Notes under the pieces: model-generated
Seen by the model: the letters and a program-made list of their open reading frames with translations, nothing else
Databases searched by the model: none
What the model was told of the DNA's origin: nothing
Assembly: GCA_038214755.1 (NCBI GenBank)
Contig: JBBQRQ010000054.1
Coordinates: forward strand, 1 to 32,930
Length of the DNA: 32,930 bases
Reading direction: 5' to 3'
DNA from: Verrucomicrobiota bacterium
Lineage (GTDB): Bacteria > Verrucomicrobiota > Verrucomicrobiia > Limisphaerales > CANJXF01
Part shown: piece by piece, positions 6,315 to 26,772 of the stretch
Position numbering within the stretch: position 1 is the stretch's first letter
How the letters are laid out: every line of letters starts with the position of its first letter
Program-made: the position numbers and the translations under genes

Positions 6315-6438
6315 ACAAATCCTTTCTTTTAGATTGGCGAACTCCACGCACAGGTTCAACCAACGCTTCGCGAACGTCTCCAGTATGCGCAATTTAAATT
6401 TTGTCGGCGAAAACGGGATTTTTTGAAATAGTTTTCTC

Positions 6439-6873
6439 ATGACCACCACTCAAAACTGGTTTATCTGGGCATTGCTCTCCGCAGTTTTCGCCGCGCTCAC
6501 CGCGATTTTTGCCAAAGTTGGATTGGAAGGCGTGAATTCCGATTTCGCCACGCTCATTCGCACGTTCGTCATTCTCGGAGTGTTGGTGGTATTTGTTTTT
6601 CTCACCGACAAATGGATCAATCCGCTGACGCTGAACGCGAAGACCTGGACGTTTCTGATTCTTTCCGCCATCGCGACCGGCGCCTCGTGGATTTGTTATT
6701 TCCGCGCGTTGAAATTAGGCGATGCGTCAAAAGTCGCGCCCGTCGATAAATTGAGCGTCATCCTCGTCGCCATTTTCGCCGTGATCTTTTTGCACGAACG
6801 ACAGACCTCGCGGGATTGGTTGGGAATTCTCCTGGTCGGCCTCGGGGTGGTTGTCTTGGGATTAAAAAGATGA
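6439..6873 (+). CDS. EamA-family (single-domain DMT) transporter
   Basis: 144 aa; AIFAKVG, SDFATLIRT, SWICYFRALKLGDASKVAPVDKLS motifs. Confidence 0.92.
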   Translation: MTTTQNWFIWALLSAVFAALTAIFAKVGLEGVNSDFATLIRTFVILGVLVVFVFLTDKWINPLTLNAKTWTFLILSAIATGASWICYFRALKLGDASKVAPVDKLSVILVAIFAVIFLHERQTSRDWLGILLVGLGVVVLGLKR

Positions 6874-6911: not shown

Positions 6912-7066
6912 TCTCATTAACACCGTGGCTTTAGCCCGGTGTCCAGGGAGCGACGAGAATTTAGCCGTTTCAACGGCTTTGCCGAGCCACGCTCAGAAGC
7001 CGTTAAAACGGCTGAATTTATTTTCGACGCAATTTTCACCGGGCTAAAGCCACGGTGTTAATGAGA
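6912..7066. repeat. MITE/REPIN-like element with perfect 30-bp terminal inverted repeats and inner palindromes
   Basis: TCTCATTAACACCGTGGCTTTAGCCCGGTG (6912-6941) is the exact reverse complement of 7037-7066; inner hairpins AGCCGTTTCAACGGCT and AGCCGTTAAAACGGCT. Confidence 0.9.
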
Positions 7067-10122: not shown

Positions 10123-13080
10123 TTATTTAAATGCTTCGGCCAAAATTTTTTGTTGCTCGCGTTTGTGCTGGTTCGTCGAGCCGGTCGCCGGGCTGGCCGA
10201 GGCGGGTCGGGAAATAATTGAAAATGGAAAACGTCCAAACAATTTTTCGCCGAAGGTCGCTCGCAAATAACGCCAAGCGCCCATGTTCTCCGGCTCTTCC
10301 TGCACCCAAAAAACCGGAGTGCCCTCCGCGAAGTTTTCCAGCGCGGATTGGAGAACTTCTTTTTTGAGAGGGTAAAGTTGTTCGAGTCGAAGAAGGGCAA
10401 CGTCGTCGCGCTTGGATTTTTCCCGCTGCTCCTGAAGTTCATAATAAAGTTTTCCAGCGCAAAGCAAAACGCGCTGAACTTTTTCGTTCGGATTCGCGTC
10501 GGCCATCACGTATTGAAAACTTCCCTCGGACAATTCAGCCAAACTCGAAACGGCTTGAGGGTGGCGCAGCAAACTTTTTGGCGTCATCACGACGAGCGGC
10601 TTGCGCCATGGAGAAATCATTTGTCGTCGCAGGCAGTGAAAATATTGCGCGGGCGTGCTTGGGTAAACCACTTGGATATTATCCTCGGCGGCGAGGGCGA
10701 GAAACCGTTCGAGGCGCGCGCTGGAATGTTCCGGCCCCATTCCTTCAAAACCGTGCGGCAGGAGCAAAACGATTCCAGAAAGGCGATGCCATTTTTCCTC
10801 GGCGCTGACGATGAATTGGTCGATGATGACTTGGGCGGCGTTGACGAAATCCCCGAATTGCGCTTCCCACAAAATCAGGCCATCGGGTCGGTCCAGACTG
10901 TAACCGTAATCGAAACCAAGCACGCCGGATTCGGAAAGCGGGCTGTTGAGAATTTCCACGCGGGCGACGGGCGACTGGGAGCCGACGGCACTCGCAGGCT
11001 GGAAGCCTGCGCTACGTAGCGCAGGCTTCCAGCCTGCGGGTTCGGGACTCTTCCAGAGCCCAGGGAGCGTCGTCGCGATATTTTCCAGCGGAATATAAGT
11101 GCGGCCATCCTCGTAATCGTAAAGCACGGCGTGGCGTTGCGTGAAAGTCCCGCGCGCGCTGTCTTGTCCGCTGAGTCGAATGGGAAAACCTTCGCAGGCG
11201 AGAGTAGCGAAGGCGAGGGCTTCGGCGGCGGACCAGTCCAGCGGCTGTTTTCCAGCAGCCATGTCGCGGCGGGATTCCAAAAACTTTTCAATTTTTGGAT
11301 GCGGATGAAAATCTTTGGGCAACTCAGTTTGCGCGCGCAGCAGCGTGGAAAGTTTTTCAACGCTCACGCCGGTTTGAATCTCTGGAATTTTTTCAAAAGG
11401 GCCGCCCAAATATTTTTTCCGATCCCACGTTCCGCGCGGCGATTCGCTGAACGCATTATAATTTTCATTGCGCGATTCGGATAATTCCCGTTCCAGATTT
11501 TCGCGGCGACGCGACGCAATTTCATCGGCCTCCGGTCGGGAAATTTCGTTCAGCTTCAAGAGATGTTCGAGATAACCTTCGCGGACGGGCTTTCGTTTTT
11601 CGATGGCGCGATAAAGTGTCGGTTGCGTGAAGGACGGTTCGTCGGATTCGTTGTGGCCGAGTCGGCGGTAGCCCCACATATCGATCACGACGTCGCGCTT
11701 GAATTCGAGGCGGAAATCCATCGCCAGTTTTACGACCTGCGCGACTGCTTCCGGGTCTTCGCCGTTCACATGGAAAATTGGAATCTGCAACATCTTCGCC
11801 ACGTCCGTTGCGTAAAGGCTGGAGCGCGCTTCGTTGGGCGAAGTGGTAAACCCAATCTGGTTGTTCAAAACAATGTGGAGCGCGCCGCCGACGGAATATC
11901 CAGGAAGCTGGCTCAAATTAAATGTCTCTTGCACCACGCCTTCTCCGGCGAACGCGGCGTCGCCGTGGATCAACAAACCGAGGCAGCGCGTTTTCTCAGT
12001 GTCTCCAAAATAATCCTGCTTGGCGCGGACGCGGCCGAGCGCGACGGGGTTGACGAATTCGAGATGGCTGGGATTGAAGCAGAGCGAAAGATGGATCGAT
12101 TTGCCGGAAGTCGTTTTCCAATCGCCGCTGTATCCGAGATGATATTTCACGTCGCCCGCTCCGCGTCGTTTTGATTCGGTGTCGGCGAACTCGCGAAAAA
12201 TCTGGCGCGGATTTTTTCCGATAATGTTGGCGAGCACATTCAACCGGCCGCGATGCGCCATGCCGAAAACAATTTCCTGCACGCCTTGTTCGCCCGCTTT
12301 TTCGATGGCCAGATCCAGGAGAGGAATCAAACTCTCGCAGCCTTCGAGAGAAAAACTTTTTGCGCCGATAAATTTTTTGTGAATGAACTCCTCGAAGGTG
12401 ACAGCATCGGTCAGCCGCGTGAAAATTCTGAGTTGCTCGTCGCGCGTGAGTTGCAGGCGATTCTCCGTCGGCTCCATCCGCTTCTGCAACCACCGACGCA
12501 GCGCGAGGTCGTCGATGTGCATGTACTCAACGCCGATCGAGCGGCAATAGGTGTTGCGGAGTCGCTGCAATAATTCGCGAACGGTGAGCGGGCCATCGAA
12601 TTGAAAGGTCTCCGTTGCAACAGTTCGATCCATGTCTTCCTCGTTGATGCCAAAAAATGACGGCTCAAGTTCGGGAACGGAGGCGCGCTGAATTCCGAGG
12701 GGATCGAGTTGCGCGAGCATGTGTCCGCGACCGCGATGATTGCGGACGAGCTGGTTGACCTTGTCCTGCAATTGGGCGACGCGCGCCGGTTCGTAGCCGG
12801 CGACGGGAGGAGGCGGACTTGAACCAGAGAGGTGAGTTTCCGCCTCATTACGTCGGCGGCTACCAGCGGGTTCATGGCTGCCGGACGACGGATTGAAAAT
12901 GGATCGAGGGCGGAAGGTGGGGCCGCGACAGAAGGGTCGAGTGGCTTCTCCATTGCGCAATTCAGAAAAATATTTTTTCCACTCAGTGGAAACGGAATCG
13001 GGGTTGTCCTGGTAATCGGCGAAAAGTTCCTCGACAAACGCGAGGTTCAAACTGCTTGGAATTTTTTCTTCAGAATTCAT
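10123..13080 (-). CDS. sucA: 2-oxoglutarate dehydrogenase E1 with two repeat-derived in-frame insertions
   Basis: [29 protein letters not shown]hDP motif, [31 protein letters not shown]. Confidence 0.97.
10968..11064. repeat. Back-to-back GTAG REP pair (46-bp perfect palindrome core) inside sucA
   Basis: CGCAGGCTGGAAGCCTGCGCTAC|GTAGCGCAGGCTTCCAGCCTGCG at 10993-11038; related intergenic copy at 32821-32870. Confidence 0.9.
12793..12863. repeat. GTAG REP doublet inside the sucA 5' region
   Basis: 25-nt arms at 12793-12817 and 12839-12863 (4 mismatches); same family as the intergenic element at 18535-18614. Confidence 0.88.
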
Positions 13081-14374: not shown

Positions 14375-15301
14375 CTACTTTTTTGCCGAGGCGTGCTCTT
14401 GCAGCCAGATCACGTCTGGATTGGGGGGGCTAAAGGTGACTGCACTAAAAGAAATACCAGTAATTATCGTTCGCTTATCCTTCCAGCGGTGAATTTCCGA
14501 ATGGCCGTCAGCAAAAGCAAAACCACAAGCCCCGTTGTGATAGGTTGCGGGCGCATCGAGCAATTTGTTTTCCACCATGGTGACGGCAAATCCCGCGTCA
14601 TTCAGACTGCGAGCGTCTTCATCCAGAAAGACGAAAATTTGAGCAGGTCCCGGTTTCACAAAAGAAGTCAATTTGCCATAAACCTGAAAGCAGTTGCCGC
14701 CGGTGCAATTTCTACTGTGAGCATGAGTGCCATCGAGCCACGGACCGTTGACGGGAACTTTTCCGCCCGAGTAAGGATCGGTGCCGACAGCCTGATTCAT
14801 CGAAAAGGTTCTCGCGGCTGGAACAATTTGCCGGGCGGTGGAGGGAGCGGTTGACCGGCCCATTCGCAAGTCGGCGGGACATTTGAAAATGCTGACGCTC
14901 TTGCCGATGTAAGGAACGAGCAAAGATAGGGTCGCATCTTTTAGGATGTCACTGTTGAATTCCTCCCCCTGGCCTATGCCAGCCTTGCCGGGACACCAAT
15001 TGTAGCCCGGTGTCGTGTTACCGTTGTCGGGATTGGGAGGCAATAACTCCGTGGAATCTCCGGCGTAAAAGTGGATCGCCAGCATCATTTGCTTGCCGTT
15101 ATTCATGCACTGAATGCCTTGCGCTTTTATCTTGGCTTTGGCCAACGCCGGCAACAGCAGACCGGCTAGAATGGCAATGATGGCGATGACGACCAAAAGC
15201 TCAATCAACGTAAAACCGTCCTGGGAAAATGTTGCTGGGCACGAAGTGTGATTTGCTGCGTCGGTCGTAAAGAGGTTAGTCCTTACTTTTCTCATTTTCA
15301 T
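14375..15301 (-). CDS. Prepilin-type N-terminal cleavage/methylation protein with H-X9-DG C-terminus
   Basis: [49 protein letters not shown]; start at 15301 or 15295. Confidence 0.9.
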
Positions 15302-15458: not shown

Positions 15459-16880
15459 TCATCGGACATAAATGGGGTTGGCATAAACCCAAGCCCTCTC
15501 CTCGCCATCGAGCGTCAGCCATCCTTCCACGCGATAAACGCCCGGACCCTCAATAGCCTCGTCCATGAACGATTGGGTTTCTTCGTGAATCACTTTGCCA
15601 TTCTTTAGCAGCCGGATTTTTGTGGACAGAGGAAACCGCGCGATCAACCGCATCCCTTTGGCAAACGGAATTTCATCGCCCATGATGGCTGCGGGGAATT
15701 CAGAGGATGGATTGTTTTTCGAAGGAGCTTTCTGCTTAGGGACATTTTGAGTGAGTGCCTCAAACTGAAATCCGGTCGGGTCGCACATCCAATCATGACT
15801 AACGTAGGCGTGCCCGGCTTTCAAAGCCGCGCGCACGGCTTTCTCGCTTAACTCCGATGCCAGAATGTGAGTGCTGACATTCCAGAAAGAACGGTAATAG
15901 GGGTCAAGATCGAGCCGGACCAGGATGTCGCCGGGCTTGTGGTCCGTCGTCAGCGCCCGGATGCCGGGCCGAAGGGATGCGTCAATTAACCGCATCCCTT
16001 CGTCCTTGTCCACATTGGTGCCGATGCGGACGCTGTTTTCGTCCACCATTTTGACAATCAATATCTGGTTATGATGGCAATCGTTTGCGGCCACACCGGT
16101 CAGGCGTCGCGTCTGTGTTTCGCCGTCCCATTTATCCAGGTAATTCTTCGGGTAATCCACTTGGAAGGCGAGCAGTTCATCGGGATAGAGGCGCAATGCT
16201 TCTTCCAGTTCCTTCACCTGTTTCGGATCGGTGAGACGCAACGCCAGCGCGATCAGGGACGCCGGATCTTTCTTGGCGTCGGCATGGCGATTGTAAATCT
16301 CCTGCCCGGTGAGTCCGTCCATCAAGTGATTGGGTCGCTCTTCGATGTGCGAGAGAAAAATCAAGCCATCTCCGGCAGTCACCAATGGAATGAACTCCGC
16401 GTTCGGCGATTCCATTTTTTCCATGATGGTCTCAGTGGGATAAATCAAAAAACCTCGGACCTCGGAACCAGGAATAAACAAAACTCCGTCCCGAATTCCA
16501 CGCCAACTATCAGTGATGAAATCGCGAGGTGGCCGGAAATGATCGGTCAACATGATGACCTTCACGTCGGCCCTTTTGGCGTCGGCGAGCATCTCCGGTC
16601 GTGTGCCTCCCGTGTGCGCCGAATCCTCCGCGTGGGCGTGAAGGATGGACCGATAATCGTGCAGGCCGGGCAGCGGCGGAACGGGCTTGCGCAACGCTTT
16701 CAGCTTTTGCACGTCCTCGTGAGTAGCTTGGAGGCGGGCAAGAGCCATCCGTTCGATGGGCATACGCTTTCGCGGTGGCTCGGTTTTGATGTCATCGCCG
16801 ATTGCGGGCGACGCTGTCAACAGAAGCCCGAGAAATAATCCGCACGCGCGCGATGCAAAGTGATGAGAGTGGCAATTCAT
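15459..16880 (-). CDS. Secreted PHP-like metallohydrolase
   Basis: Signal peptide after ATG 16880; LHAH, MLTDH, GSE, SH.EE and ANDCHH metal-ligand pattern; the upstream ORF extension is repeat-derived. Confidence 0.7.
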
Positions 16881-16886
16881 TGAAAG

Positions 16887-17066
16887 ACTCCACAGCCTTA
16901 CGACTGCGTATCGGGACCTTGAACCCAAGCCAGCAGCTCTATCGCGGCAGCGTCTTGGACTGCGCCAGCCCTCTGGCGCTTTATGGACGATGACATCCGC
17001 ACCCAAAGCGCCAGAGGGCTGGCGCAGTCCAAAACCTGGCGGCACTTCGAACGGTTCATTAGAAAG
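16887..17066. mobile_element. Cassette-like non-autonomous element carrying a CGTC-tagged REP doublet
   Basis: Left end GCGTATCGGGACCTTGAACC (16906-16925); perfect 28-bp inverted repeat 16955-16982/17005-17032; right end GGTTCATTAGAAAG; flanked by a TTCATT(A)GAAAGA direct repeat. Confidence 0.7.
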
Positions 17067-17105
17067 ATTTTCATTGAAGTTCTTTGACCGGTAAATTCGT
17101 CCCGG

Positions 17106-18428
17106 TCATTTGATCTTTCCCAGCATCTGGTAAATCCAGGTCAACGCGGTGTTCATCATTTTTTCACCGGCCCCGACCTCAACCGGCGAAACCTGGGCGT
17201 CTGCGCCATAACCTCCTTCCGCCACCGCTTCAATGGTGGGAAAATATTGGTGATAGCCATTGCAGTAACCGAAAAAGAAAAGTTGTTTCACCCGCGCCCG
17301 TTCTTTCAGCCGGATGGAATGGTTGCAAAAAAATTCTCCCGACGCCCCGACCAGGGCGATGTCGCCGTTGAGCAAAGCCACAGTAAGGCGTGGCCGAATG
17401 CCATCGGCATATTCATCTGTGTAGTTGGGTATCAATTCCGGAAAGAAAGCAAAACCATACGCGACTCGGATAGCGGGATTGCTCCAATCGGTTCGCGAAG
17501 TGAACTTGAACCGCTCCTCTCTCACAACGAGGGAAGGCTTGGTGATTTCCTCCGGTTTCAGGCTGGAGGCAAGCTTGACCACTTCGCGTCCCAACGCCTT
17601 GCCGAAACCTTCATGGCCTTTATTCTCGCCTGCATTTGCCGACATGTCTCCGGCAGCGCCTTGCATGAAAACGACCGGGCCGCCGAACTCCTTTTCCACT
17701 GTCTCCCTCATCGCGCCAACATAGTCCGCCGAGAATTTGAGAATGGCGGCGGAGATCATGGTGGGGTGCGCGGTGAAATTGACAATGACGGCTATCGGCT
17801 TGCCATTCGTGTCGTCCAAACGGATAACACCCAGGTCTCTATCAGCGGACTTAGGCTCAATCTTGGTTTGGCGATTTCGGTTGAAGCTTTCCAGCTTGAT
17901 GACACCAGTTGCCAGCTTCGCAGGAATCAATTTGGAATCCGCTTCGAGGACGGCGGCGACAATCCCTTCTTCCAGTTCCTTGTAGTAGCGCAATGCGGCG
18001 TCGAATTTGCCTTTGCCCTTGCCTTCTTCATCCGACAACTCCAGCACCGGGCCATGATGCGTGTGGGACCCTGCGATGAACGAATAGTCAATGTCTGCCT
18101 TTTCTTTGATAAGCGCGCGGATGTTCTGAAGTGACTTTTCCGAAGGAGACCGCCCGAGATCCAAGCCGACAATGGCGAGCTTTTTTTCGCCCGCCTGAAT
18201 GACGACGGCGCTGGCATACAACGGGTCCAACGTGCCCGCTGACAACGCGGCGTGACGTGCTCCATAACCCCACATGGGAACGGGTTCTTTGGGAGTGATA
18301 TTCCGTCTGCCCGCACCCGCTTTGAAGGCCGTCGGGGATGTGTCGGCGCGTGTGAGCAGGGAGGCAGCGAGCACAAAGCTGATAACCAGCACGCAAAATT
18401 TCCGGATGCGGAGTGGTTGTAATTTCAT
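17106..18428 (-). CDS. Neutral/alkaline ceramidase N-terminal-domain-like secreted hydrolase
   Basis: Signal peptide; AGAGRRNITP, DPLYASAVV, SHTHHGP, NFTAHPT, SADYVG, QGAAGD motifs. Confidence 0.8.
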   Translation of the reverse strand: MKLQPLRIRKFCVLVISFVLAASLLTRADTSPTAFKAGAGRRNITPKEPVPMWGYGARHAALSAGTLDPLYASAVVIQAGEKKLAIVGLDLGRSPSEKSLQNIRALIKEKADIDYSFIAGSHTHHGPVLELSDEEGKGKGKFDAALRYYKELEEGIVAAVLEADSKLIPAKLATGVIKLESFNRNRQTKIEPKSADRDLGVIRLDDTNGKPIAVIVNFTAHPTMISAAILKFSADYVGAMRETVEKEFGGPVVFMQGAAGDMSANAGENKGHEGFGKALGREVVKLASSLKPEEITKPSLVVREERFKFTSRTDWSNPAIRVAYGFAFFPELIPNYTDEYADGIRPRLTVALLNGDIALVGASGEFFCNHSIRLKERARVKQLFFFGYCNGYHQYFPTIEAVAEGGYGADAQVSPVEVGAGEKMMNTALTWIYQMLGKIK

Positions 18429-18534: not shown

Positions 18535-18614
18535 AATCGTAGCAGCCGACGTAAGGAGGCTCATTTTTCAAAAACTGGATTGATTAGAGCCTCCTTACGT
18601 CGGCTGCTACGATT
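18535..18614. repeat. GTAG REP doublet (REPIN-like), intergenic
   Basis: Perfect 28-bp inverted repeat AATCGTAGCAGCCGACGTAAGGAGGCTC at 18535-18562/18587-18614. Confidence 0.92.
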
Positions 18615-18744: not shown

Positions 18745-19512
18745 ATGAAGAGCGCGCGATTAAAAAGAAAGTCCGGCTTTACCTTGATCGAATTGCTGGT
18801 GGCCATCGCCATCATTGCTATTCTCGCGGGCCTGTTGCTGCCCGCTTTAGCCAAGGCCAAGTCCAAGGCGCTGCGAATCAAATGCCTCAGCAATATCAAA
18901 CAACTCCAGCTTTGTTGGAACATGTACCCTGACGACAACAACGGCTTTTGCCCGCCGAATAATCCGAACGGAACACCGACTCCCCCAGGGAACGAAGCGT
19001 GGATTTACGGGGACGTGAGAGCTGACCTGGACACCCGCAACATCGTAGCTGGAGTTCTCTACAAGTATAACTCTTCGGCTGCTATTTACGTCTGTCCCGA
19101 GGATCGATTTACCGTCAACGCTCGCGGGGTGAGTTACCCGACGACGCGGAGTTATTCGATGGTCAGTGCCATGCCTCAACAGGCGCCTTATGGGTCCCGC
19201 AAGTATTCAACCATCACCGACCCCACACCGGTCAAGGCTCTCGTGTTCATGGATGAAGATGATCGGCTGAACAACCCGCAAAATGGAATCAATGATGGCA
19301 ACATTGGATTGCGCCTGTATCCCGCGCTGGAATGGGGCGATTCACCGGGCCGACGCCACGACAACGGAGTCACAGTGTCCATGGCTGACGGTCACGCCGA
19401 GTATTGGAAATGGAGATCCAATAGAAAATATTTTGAGCGGGGTGGCGTGAAACCGGACGAGATTCCGGATCTTTTAAAAATTCAACAGGGCCTTCCGGGC
19501 TACATTTATTAA
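18745..19512 (+). CDS. Prepilin-type N-terminal cleavage/methylation protein with H-X9-DG C-terminus
   Basis: [53 protein letters not shown] at 18745. Confidence 0.9.
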   Translation: MKSARLKRKSGFTLIELLVAIAIIAILAGLLLPALAKAKSKALRIKCLSNIKQLQLCWNMYPDDNNGFCPPNNPNGTPTPPGNEAWIYGDVRADLDTRNIVAGVLYKYNSSAAIYVCPEDRFTVNARGVSYPTTRSYSMVSAMPQQAPYGSRKYSTITDPTPVKALVFMDEDDRLNNPQNGINDGNIGLRLYPALEWGDSPGRRHDNGVTVSMADGHAEYWKWRSNRKYFERGGVKPDEIPDLLKIQQGLPGYIY

Positions 19513-25253: not shown

Positions 25254-25484
25254 CCTCACCCCGGCCCTCTCCTCCGAGGAGAGATTCCCGATTTTGTTTT
25301 CGCGCATTGAATCCCTGAACCGGCAAGGACAACCTTTTGTTGCATATGCAACAAAAGGTTGTCTGAATTTCTGCCGGTCGGTTCATGGGGAGGGAAAGTT
25401 ATTCAGCGTCGGAAAATATTCATCGTTGAATGACTGATCGAGCGGGCTGCTGGCAGGTTCCCTCTCCTCGGGGGAGAGGGTGAG
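25254..25484. repeat. CCCTCTCC-type REP doublet interrupted by a nested cassette
   Basis: CCTCACCCCGGCCCTCTCCTCCGAGGAGAG (25254-25283) and TCCCTCTCCTCGGGGGAGAGGGTGAG (25459-25484). Confidence 0.75.
25284..25392. mobile_element. Cassette-like element carrying a 36-bp perfect palindrome
   Basis: GCGCATTGAATCCCTGAACC (25302-25321); palindrome GACAACCTTTTGTTGCAT|ATGCAACAAAAGGTTGTC (25328-25363); right end GGTTCATGGGGAG. Confidence 0.7.
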
Positions 25485-26137: not shown

Positions 26138-26303
26138 AAACCACAGATGGACACAGATGGACACAGATTTGAACGGGGAACGATGGGAGCGATGGACTTT
26201 ACTTTTTACCAAAGCTCTTCACGCGAAATTAACGTTTTAAGAATCGGCGCTTTGCCCCGATCTGTTTTGTTGTATCCGTGTCCATCAGTGTCCATCTGTG
26301 GTT
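26138..26303. repeat. Inverted element built from 10-mer tandem repeats (ACACAGATGG)
   Basis: AAACCACAGATGGACACAGATGGACACAGAT (26138-26168) and inverted ATCCGTGTCCATCAGTGTCCATCTGTGGTT (26274-26303), between rnpA and yidD. Confidence 0.85.
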
Positions 26304-26325
26304 TCCATCTTTGCCGTGAATTCTC

Positions 26326-26772
26326 ATGAACGCGGCCCAACACATTTTGATTTTTCTGGTGCGGGTTTATCAGTGGACGCTTTCTCCTGCGAAAATTCTT
26401 TTGTTCGGCCCGCTGGGACGTTGCCGCTACACGCCGAGTTGTTCGCAATACGCGTTGGAAGCGATCCGAATTCATAAAGCGATGATGGGAAGCTGGCTGA
26501 GCCTGAAAAGGATTTGCCGTTGTCAGCCTTGGGGCGGTTGCGGACACGACCCGGTTTTGAGGGGGAGCGCATGCGGCTCGCGTGCTGAATCCGGCGTCGC
26601 GCCGGATTCCCGTTCCACAACGGATTCGCGTTCCTCTAATATTTTTTCGGAACAGTCAGAGGAACGAGGTTCGAGGCGCGACGCCTCGAACTGCACGCCA
26701 GAGGCGTGCGCTCCCCATCTCAAATTCAAAACTCACGACTCAAAATTCAAAACTGTTTTCCATGGATCGTAA
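26326..26772 (+). CDS. yidD: Membrane protein insertion efficiency factor YidD with repeat-derived C-terminal extension
   Basis: [38 protein letters not shown], then about 70 extra aa. Confidence 0.93.
26562..26716. repeat. GGAG-tagged REP doublet within the yidD 3' end
   Basis: GGGGAGCGCA...TGCGCTCCCC termini; inner hairpins AATCCGGCGTCGCGCCGGATT and GTTCGAGGCGCGACGCCTCGAAC. Confidence 0.8.

Follow-up and report, generated by a model that had tools for sequence, protein, structure and literature searches.

The window, a stretch of 32,930 nucleotides from a Verrucomicrobiota contig (JBBQRQ010000054.1), carries two non-coding modules built to one plan, locus 1 (16885-17066) beside a hydrolase gene and locus 2 (25282-25392) within a repeat of REP type (Table 1). 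In both, an AG dinucleotide is followed by a linker of 18-19 nt, a conserved 20-mer ending in a 9-nt arm, a cargo, the reverse complement of that arm in the right end (consensus GGTTCATGG), two bases, and again AG. With its AG, the left end or A box of the window modules measures 40-41 bp and the right end or B box 13-14 bp; the terminal AGs are common to the gene-less module and the insertion sequence (IS) described below. The original prediction had placed this shared architecture at 16876-17074 and 25278-25394, and all its coordinates check, as do the 14/20 identity between the two 20-mers and the positions of the 12- and 13-mers bounding locus 1 and of an ATG at 17074. Its palindromic cargoes fared less evenly: the 36-bp palindrome of locus 2 is there, and the arms at locus 1 are 31 nt long (97% complementary), not 28 bp.

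Table 1. Features of the two modules and of the genes next to module 1, in window positions.
Feature	Position	Strand	Remarks
CehA/McbA-like metallohydrolase gene	15459..16880	-	NF038032, E 4.9e-12, below cut-off; not interrupted by the module
Left flank (target half), module 1	16876..16886	+	B-box-like; last 7 nt TTGAAAG; ends in AG core (16885-16886); contains the hydrolase ATG (minus strand)
A box, module 1	16887..16925	+	19-nt variable linker, 11-nt conserved stretch, 9-nt left arm (subterminal inverted repeat); 20-mer at 16906-16925
Cargo, module 1	16926..17052	+	127 nt; REP-type doublet, arms 16952-16982 and 17005-17035
B box, module 1	17053..17066	+	14 nt, degenerate, one nt over consensus, AG at end
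Upstream gene, 440 aa	17106..18428	-	Syntenic with hydrolase in 3/4 congeners that have the hydrolase
Left REP half interrupted by module 2	25255..25283	+	Last 7 nt AGGAGAG; AG core at end (25282-25283)
A box, module 2	25284..25321	+	Clade-A type; 18-nt linker, 20-mer at 25302-25321
Cargo, module 2	25322..25379	+	58 nt; perfect 36-bp palindrome 25328-25363; cargo family recurs in other genomes
B box, module 2	25380..25392	+	Last 7 nt TGGGGAG, equal to the clade-A donor guide

No promoter-like site was found in 16700-17250, and the element RNA had no Rfam match. The host genome is very rich in REP families. At 12786-12876 the window holds a GTAG REP doublet followed by a right arm, with no recognisable left end, probably a decayed module. 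Five further, unrelated intergenic palindromic doublets lie at 6912-7066, 10975-11056, 18535-18614, 26138-26304 and 26559-26719. Two other repeats concern genes: an 89-nt direct repeat (533-621 and 6438-6526, 89%) at a membrane-protein gene start, one copy of which looks truncated, and a 130-nt inverted similarity (15089-15218 and 18774-18903, 71%) between the N-terminal coding regions of two pilin-like genes.

The paired ends co-occur beyond chance, as had been predicted: a strict pattern matched 30 times in the organism's own 5.1-Mb genome and twice in the reversed genome. By eye, 18 of the 30 matches look genuine and 12 chance-like, and some 20 additional diverged or nested copies lie beyond the pattern. 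The exact left motif was present in 44 of 151 genomes of the order, our own included, in up to 39 copies (reversed control: 2 in all); it was absent from both congeners within that draw. Since 46 of the 80 named records listed for the junction pattern belong to Verrucomicrobiota, we place the lineage there. Relatives often have a right end joined to the following left end by a single AG; the resulting head-to-tail arrays lie between ordinary host genes and reach five consecutive junctions. This is the joined form, right end-core-left end, that had been foreseen, and it was seen only in chromosomal arrays; the contigs of one sequencing run, possibly from the source sample, contained no circle and no precise empty site.

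The cargo is exchangeable. Among 341 (overlapping) loci we distinguished 139 strict cassettes, whose cargoes, with a median length of 77 nt, fall into 41 single-linkage families. Most are doublets of unrelated REP-type repeats, some are barely structured or only 5-8 nt long, and neighbouring cassettes of an array mostly carry unrelated cargoes. Over its whole length, module 1 can be aligned with modules at three further sites in one relative genome (G034), and therefore ends and cargo travel together. The original description of a non-autonomous element is also supported.

Where the elements cross over can be read from empty and filled copies of their REP targets. Of the REP half that precedes module 2 there are 143 copies. 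Four of them pass into a left end at the same AG, and 29 run into sequence resembling the right flank in the window and are thus empty sites. Likewise, of 292 copies of the GTAG REP half, 220 continue normally and 17 enter left-end-like sequence at one AG; one GTAG-REP module is nested in the cargo of another module. The crossover takes place at a 2-nt AG core without any longer target duplication, so that the short purine core first proposed is narrowed to a dinucleotide. The predicted empty sites exist at the REP target of module 2; at locus 1, none of the orthologues, which are 64-83% identical and diverged at the start, is an exact empty allele. These comparisons bear on the possibility that the modules are conventional MITEs, with inverted repeats at their termini and the 12/13-mer of locus 1 as target-site duplication. 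Near-direct repeats do bound that locus, yet a B-box-like target accounts for them, the subterminal arms lie at unequal distances from the two ends (4 nt and about 30 nt), and the two element ends, like the REP targets and the element, have no more than AG or a few purines in common. The comparison of empty and filled sites refutes this account, which we regard as hardly credible, unless locus 1 had another origin than its homologues.

Head-to-tail arrays invite comparison with integrons, whose cassettes are circularisable and form one-way arrays with a common recombination site. An integron-like system, in which a tyrosine or serine recombinase would use the junction as its att site, would fit the runs of consecutive junctions and the GTT/AAC pair in the arms. 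However, the crossover at AG lies outside the arms, no adjacent IntI with a GTT crossover was found, and no passenger genes occur among 67 long inserts, of which 62 hold a transposase, one a guide RNA, and four are apparently spans between separate arrays. Neither a Pfam search of 127 array-flanking ORFs, which returned host genes and no recombinase, nor all-against-all clustering of 155 loci, which returned host genes and no recurrent recombinase, produced an enzyme of this kind, and we give the idea next to no weight. Almost as improbable is a single-strand HUH/Y1 enzyme (RAYT, IS200/IS605 or IS91 type) that reads the long hairpin made up of arms and cargo. That most cargoes are REP doublets, that the arms close the hairpin and that the genome has 17 Y1 matches would suit such an enzyme. 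Against it, the paired ends are absent around all 17 of these loci, around 30 Y1 loci of five relatives and around 8 Y2 loci, so that no HUH transposase of the REPIN/RAYT, IS200/IS605 or IS91 type flanked by them was found; some cargoes, as noted, are barely structured or minute, and the ends are those of IS110 elements. The REP doublets may nevertheless have been brought into the modules by RAYTs, or have got there through internal deletion of larger units.

After the HUH and recombinase searches near arrays had come up blank, the transposase was spotted by reading the array flanks. At one locus (L211) an IS110 gene ends 8 nt before a right end; at another (L134) a whole element with both ends sits in a GTAG REP. 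The protein scores 214 bits against NF033542 (cut-off 140) and has the domains PF01548 (DEDD) and PF02371 (Transposase_20). Of 80 metagenome loci fetched, 74 were scorable, with at least 25 nt after the stop, and in counts whose related elements are not independent of each other the B box lay within 130 nt after the transposase stop in all 74, 8 nt after it in 54, and another module directly followed the element in 40 of 66 scorable loci. The A box lies about 230 nt upstream of the start codon. Such transposases are abundant (4479 matches among 7999 scored), and on plasmids of Caballeronia a gene of 58% identity lies between the same ends. The soil isolate Caballeronia sp. SBC2 has a related element (L407). 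The enzyme is thus encoded elsewhere, as the original prediction, which had named IS110 among its candidates, supposed.

The fold of the non-coding left end, which lies upstream of the gene, has two internal loops and inner hairpins, with compensatory change at 27 of 44 pairs (23 sequences). The first loop contains a 7-nt stretch ending in AG, the target guide, and the second a matching stretch, the donor guide. We aligned 63 elements, 5 of them without a flank and 15 with a flank that is not a right end. In the 43 located behind a right end, the target guide equalled the left flank in 35, differing by one base in 6 and by two in 2; 10,000 shuffles gave a mean of 8.5 and a maximum of 20. The donor guide equalled the element's own B box in 54 of 57 (shuffle mean 17.9, maximum 30). 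The crossed guide-site controls matched in 5/43 and 5/41, and dereplication at 90% left 23/29 target-guide and 39/41 donor-guide matches. Among the 15 elements whose flank is no right end, the guide equalled a candidate flank in 12. One point against reading these stretches as guides is that a short 5' target guide fits the right flank only at the first base past the core (23/53, shuffle mean 13.0), not at the next base. Past the core, the opposite strand of either loop matches little, in agreement with the free variation of the linker after AG; RNA thus seems to read the donor on its B-box side alone. Judged by these alignments, the non-coding end of the cognate elements of relatives contains a putative bridge RNA, both loops of which match DNA sites. 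A second point against the guide reading is that in two elements the B box equals the target guide instead of the donor guide; self-avoidance, a target guide unlike the element's own donor guide, was not significant (5/35 equal, 6.9 expected).

A quick tree distinguishes three clades. Clade B (SH-aLRT 99) comprises 52 rows, mostly with TGG-type target guides, and is over-sampled because the query for transposase loci was first found beside a B box. Clade A has five rows with three guide types, REP targets among them, and clade C three rows that target the GTAG REP. In clade-C-type modules of our own genome (G000 C5, C8, C9, C11, C12, C15, C49 and C83) both arms have changed together and run into the cargo hairpin, which suggests that arm complementarity is kept.

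Some modules carry RNA and no gene. Four complete ones (L290, L291, L292 and L303, with a cut copy in L289), of about 310-350 nt, hold a bridge-RNA-like RNA, whose donor guide equals the module's own right end in the three that are fully printed. One RNA-only module is tandemly duplicated where its target guide equals its donor guide. These modules are likely analogues of Ssr9, the RNA of the ISPpu9 system discussed below.

The window modules can be set against these guides. Module 2 matches clade-A guides at 6/7 positions in its flank and 7/7 in its right end; module 1 matches clade-B guides at 6/7 in both, the flank TTGAAAG having one mismatch to the target guide TGGAAAG, and its A box scores 21.3 against a profile built from the ends of autonomous IS. 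That the B box of module 1 is degenerate and one base too long is a point against assigning it to this lineage. In the organism's own assembly (97% complete, 175 contigs) searches brought up no homologue for either the clade transposase (best tblastn E 0.10) or the element left end (best nhmmer E 5.6), and since gene and RNA were not found there, the modules in it are either relics or dependent on unassembled or incoming copies. The genome's sole IS110 match (L132, G000 C98) was rejected as the cognate enzyme, being of a distant lineage with other ends. By eye, it appears to sit at a CT core in the REP family targeted by clade A, two bases from the clade-A site.

We conclude, with a probability of about 0.9, that both loci are MITE-type modules of an ISPpu9-like IS110 lineage that were moved in trans, and that the targeting of B boxes by clade B gives rise to arrays. 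Insertion at AG is observed, as are the sharing of ends with the full IS110 elements of relatives and the covariation of guide with site in those elements. By analogy with the biochemistry of IS621 and ISPpu9, a DEDD/Ser recombinase and a bridge RNA would be supplied in trans; the recombinase would join B box to A box at AG into a small circle, and the circle junction would recombine into a site read by the target guide. With the donor read on its B-box side only, any DNA between an A and a B box could presumably move. Clade A would go to one REP family (module 2), clade C to the GTAG REP, and clade B behind B boxes or their look-alikes (module 1), and arrays would grow because every insertion by clade B adds a B box and so regenerates a target-like site. 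The window modules would be orphans in their own assembly.

A different course of array growth is suggested by a model of Hu et al. 2026, in which IS110 ends take part in one-sided reactions and in-place duplication at donor half-matches, and not in the insertion of target-guided circles. In the available part of that preprint (10.64898/2026.08.14.744561), tandem non-coding units beside IS110 genes are common (expanded loci, n = 468) with donor-half matches at their boundaries, and insertion is said not to regenerate the target; according to the text available of another study (PMC13626964), a donor loop alone can drive recombination in vitro. Extra AG runs at the junction in 7 of 470 right ends (L307, L310, L311, L316, L323 and L346) would also fit duplication; they are perhaps footprints of repeated or slipped recombination. 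In contrast to the loci described there, our units have both ends, unrelated cargo and a target guide that matches the B box. Neighbouring cassettes are mostly not duplicates of each other, and the flank of clade-B elements follows the target guide in 35/43 and the donor guide in only 5/43. Duplication in place is therefore unlikely to be the main source of these arrays, although it is the strongest of the rivals, and we retain target-guided insertion in trans.

The architecture itself is already known, although the original prediction recognised no named family in it. As described in the accessible text on ISPpu9, an IS110-family element of Pseudomonas putida KT2440, the A box (43 bp) starts and the B box (16 bp) ends with AG (PMC12288879), crossover is at AG and REPs are the targets (PMC12288879, PMC8450116), and gene-less A'-B' modules (MITEPpu9, the ssr9 module) occur alone, behind the IS and in tandem (PMC12288879, PMC8450116); such a module circularises in a transposase-dependent manner (PMC12288879). 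Table S2 of that paper gives AG, 21 nt, GCGC, 7 nt and a 9-nt arm, 8/9 complementary to an arm 4 nt from the B-box end (PMC12288879). Box plan, arm geometry, AG crossover, REP targets and gene-less modules are thus alike, and it is by plan and geometry, not by comparison of transposase proteins, that we call the lineage ISPpu9-like. Because the box sequences differ, close transposase identity to ISPpu9, whose transposase set in the available text is over 87% related (PMC12288879), is unlikely. Unlike ISPpu9 with its one cargo (ssr9), the present lineage has 41 cargo families and three sister clades with different targets, and the target guide of one clade reads the B box; guide mapping and end-seeking are not described in the portion of the ISPpu9 work consulted (PMC12288879).

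With the bridge recombinase IS621, as portrayed in the accessible text of two reports (PMC11208160, PMC13626964), our elements share a DEDD recombinase, a bridge RNA in the long end upstream of the gene, target and donor loops, a 2-nt core and a REP target. They differ in that the core is AG on the gene strand (CT on the other) and that only one long guide per loop covaries; their 9-nt subterminal arms also exceed the 2-3 bp given there for the IS110 group (PMC11208160, PMC13626964). The IS1111 group has subterminal repeats of 7-17 bp and its bridge RNA downstream of the gene; here 9-nt arms are present, the RNA is upstream and the right end is short. GTAG REPs have been listed in Verrucomicrobia, in the part of that survey available without these ends (PMC3733652). 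Compared with integron cassettes, the one-way arrays and the shared recombination site are similar, whereas here the RNA-guided DEDD enzyme is itself a cassette, no fixed attI platform exists and the cargo is non-coding.

In the openly searchable literature we found neither this IS110 lineage nor a target guide described as pointing at the end of its own element. We lean towards a broader proposal: a branch of IS110 re-aimed its target guide at the right end of its own lineage, so that each insertion rebuilds the landing site. The outcome would resemble an RNA-guided, platform-free integron with stacked recombinase genes, guide-RNA-only cassettes, each with a donor and a target guide of its own, and captured repeats by the dozen. 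Sister clades would seed arrays, or nest them, in REPs, and about 40 + 13 bp would suffice for a donor, just one side of which would be read by RNA. This would offer a concrete mechanism for the growth of IS110 arrays, which a recent survey left open, and it names an enzyme for an intergenic repeat that is very common in Verrucomicrobiota of soil and sediment and has gone unannotated. Tests of reprogramming could draw directly on the natural pairs of guide and target. DNA parts could be stacked serially with a recombinase that rebuilds its own landing site and accepts whatever cargo lies between very short ends. A further prediction is that P. putida has a second bridge RNA in Ssr9, directed at the B box of ISPpu9.

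Removal of module 1 had been predicted to restore the start of the hydrolase gene, and this part is not supported. Excision from AG to AG removes 16887-17066 (180 nt), leaving the ATG at 16880 intact and bringing the 17074 ATG to 14 nt from it, out of frame; the 17074 ATG then opens a frame of five codons whose stop overlaps the 16880 ATG, and with the module present its frame runs into a stop within the linker. Arithmetically, the in-frame join works out only for a deletion of 179 nt that keeps the right-hand repeat. Starting at 16880, outside the element, the leader has 28 aa and resembles the 26 aa of a repeat-free orthologue (G001), which starts 5 nt after the upstream stop, whereas the joined start would give 33 aa. 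Since the two leaders are similar and AG excision is out of frame, we read the gene as intact, with 16880 as its probable start. A non-canonical crossover that keeps the right-hand repeat is possible because the right end of module 1 is one base longer than in homologous modules; given this end and the two elements whose right end equals the target guide, occasional conversion of the right end toward the target is also possible.

Gene starts can mimic the clade-B target: in G034 C171 (L010/L052) an ATG in a module's right end seems to be the start codon of a downstream PHP-domain gene. That gene was considered as an orthologue of the window hydrolase and rejected. In two relatives (L404 in G005, L403 in G006) different REP-type doublets lie in frame within the signal-peptide region of the hydrolase orthologue. 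Counting the window, independent repeat insertions are found at the start of the hydrolase gene in 3 of 4 syntenic congeners.
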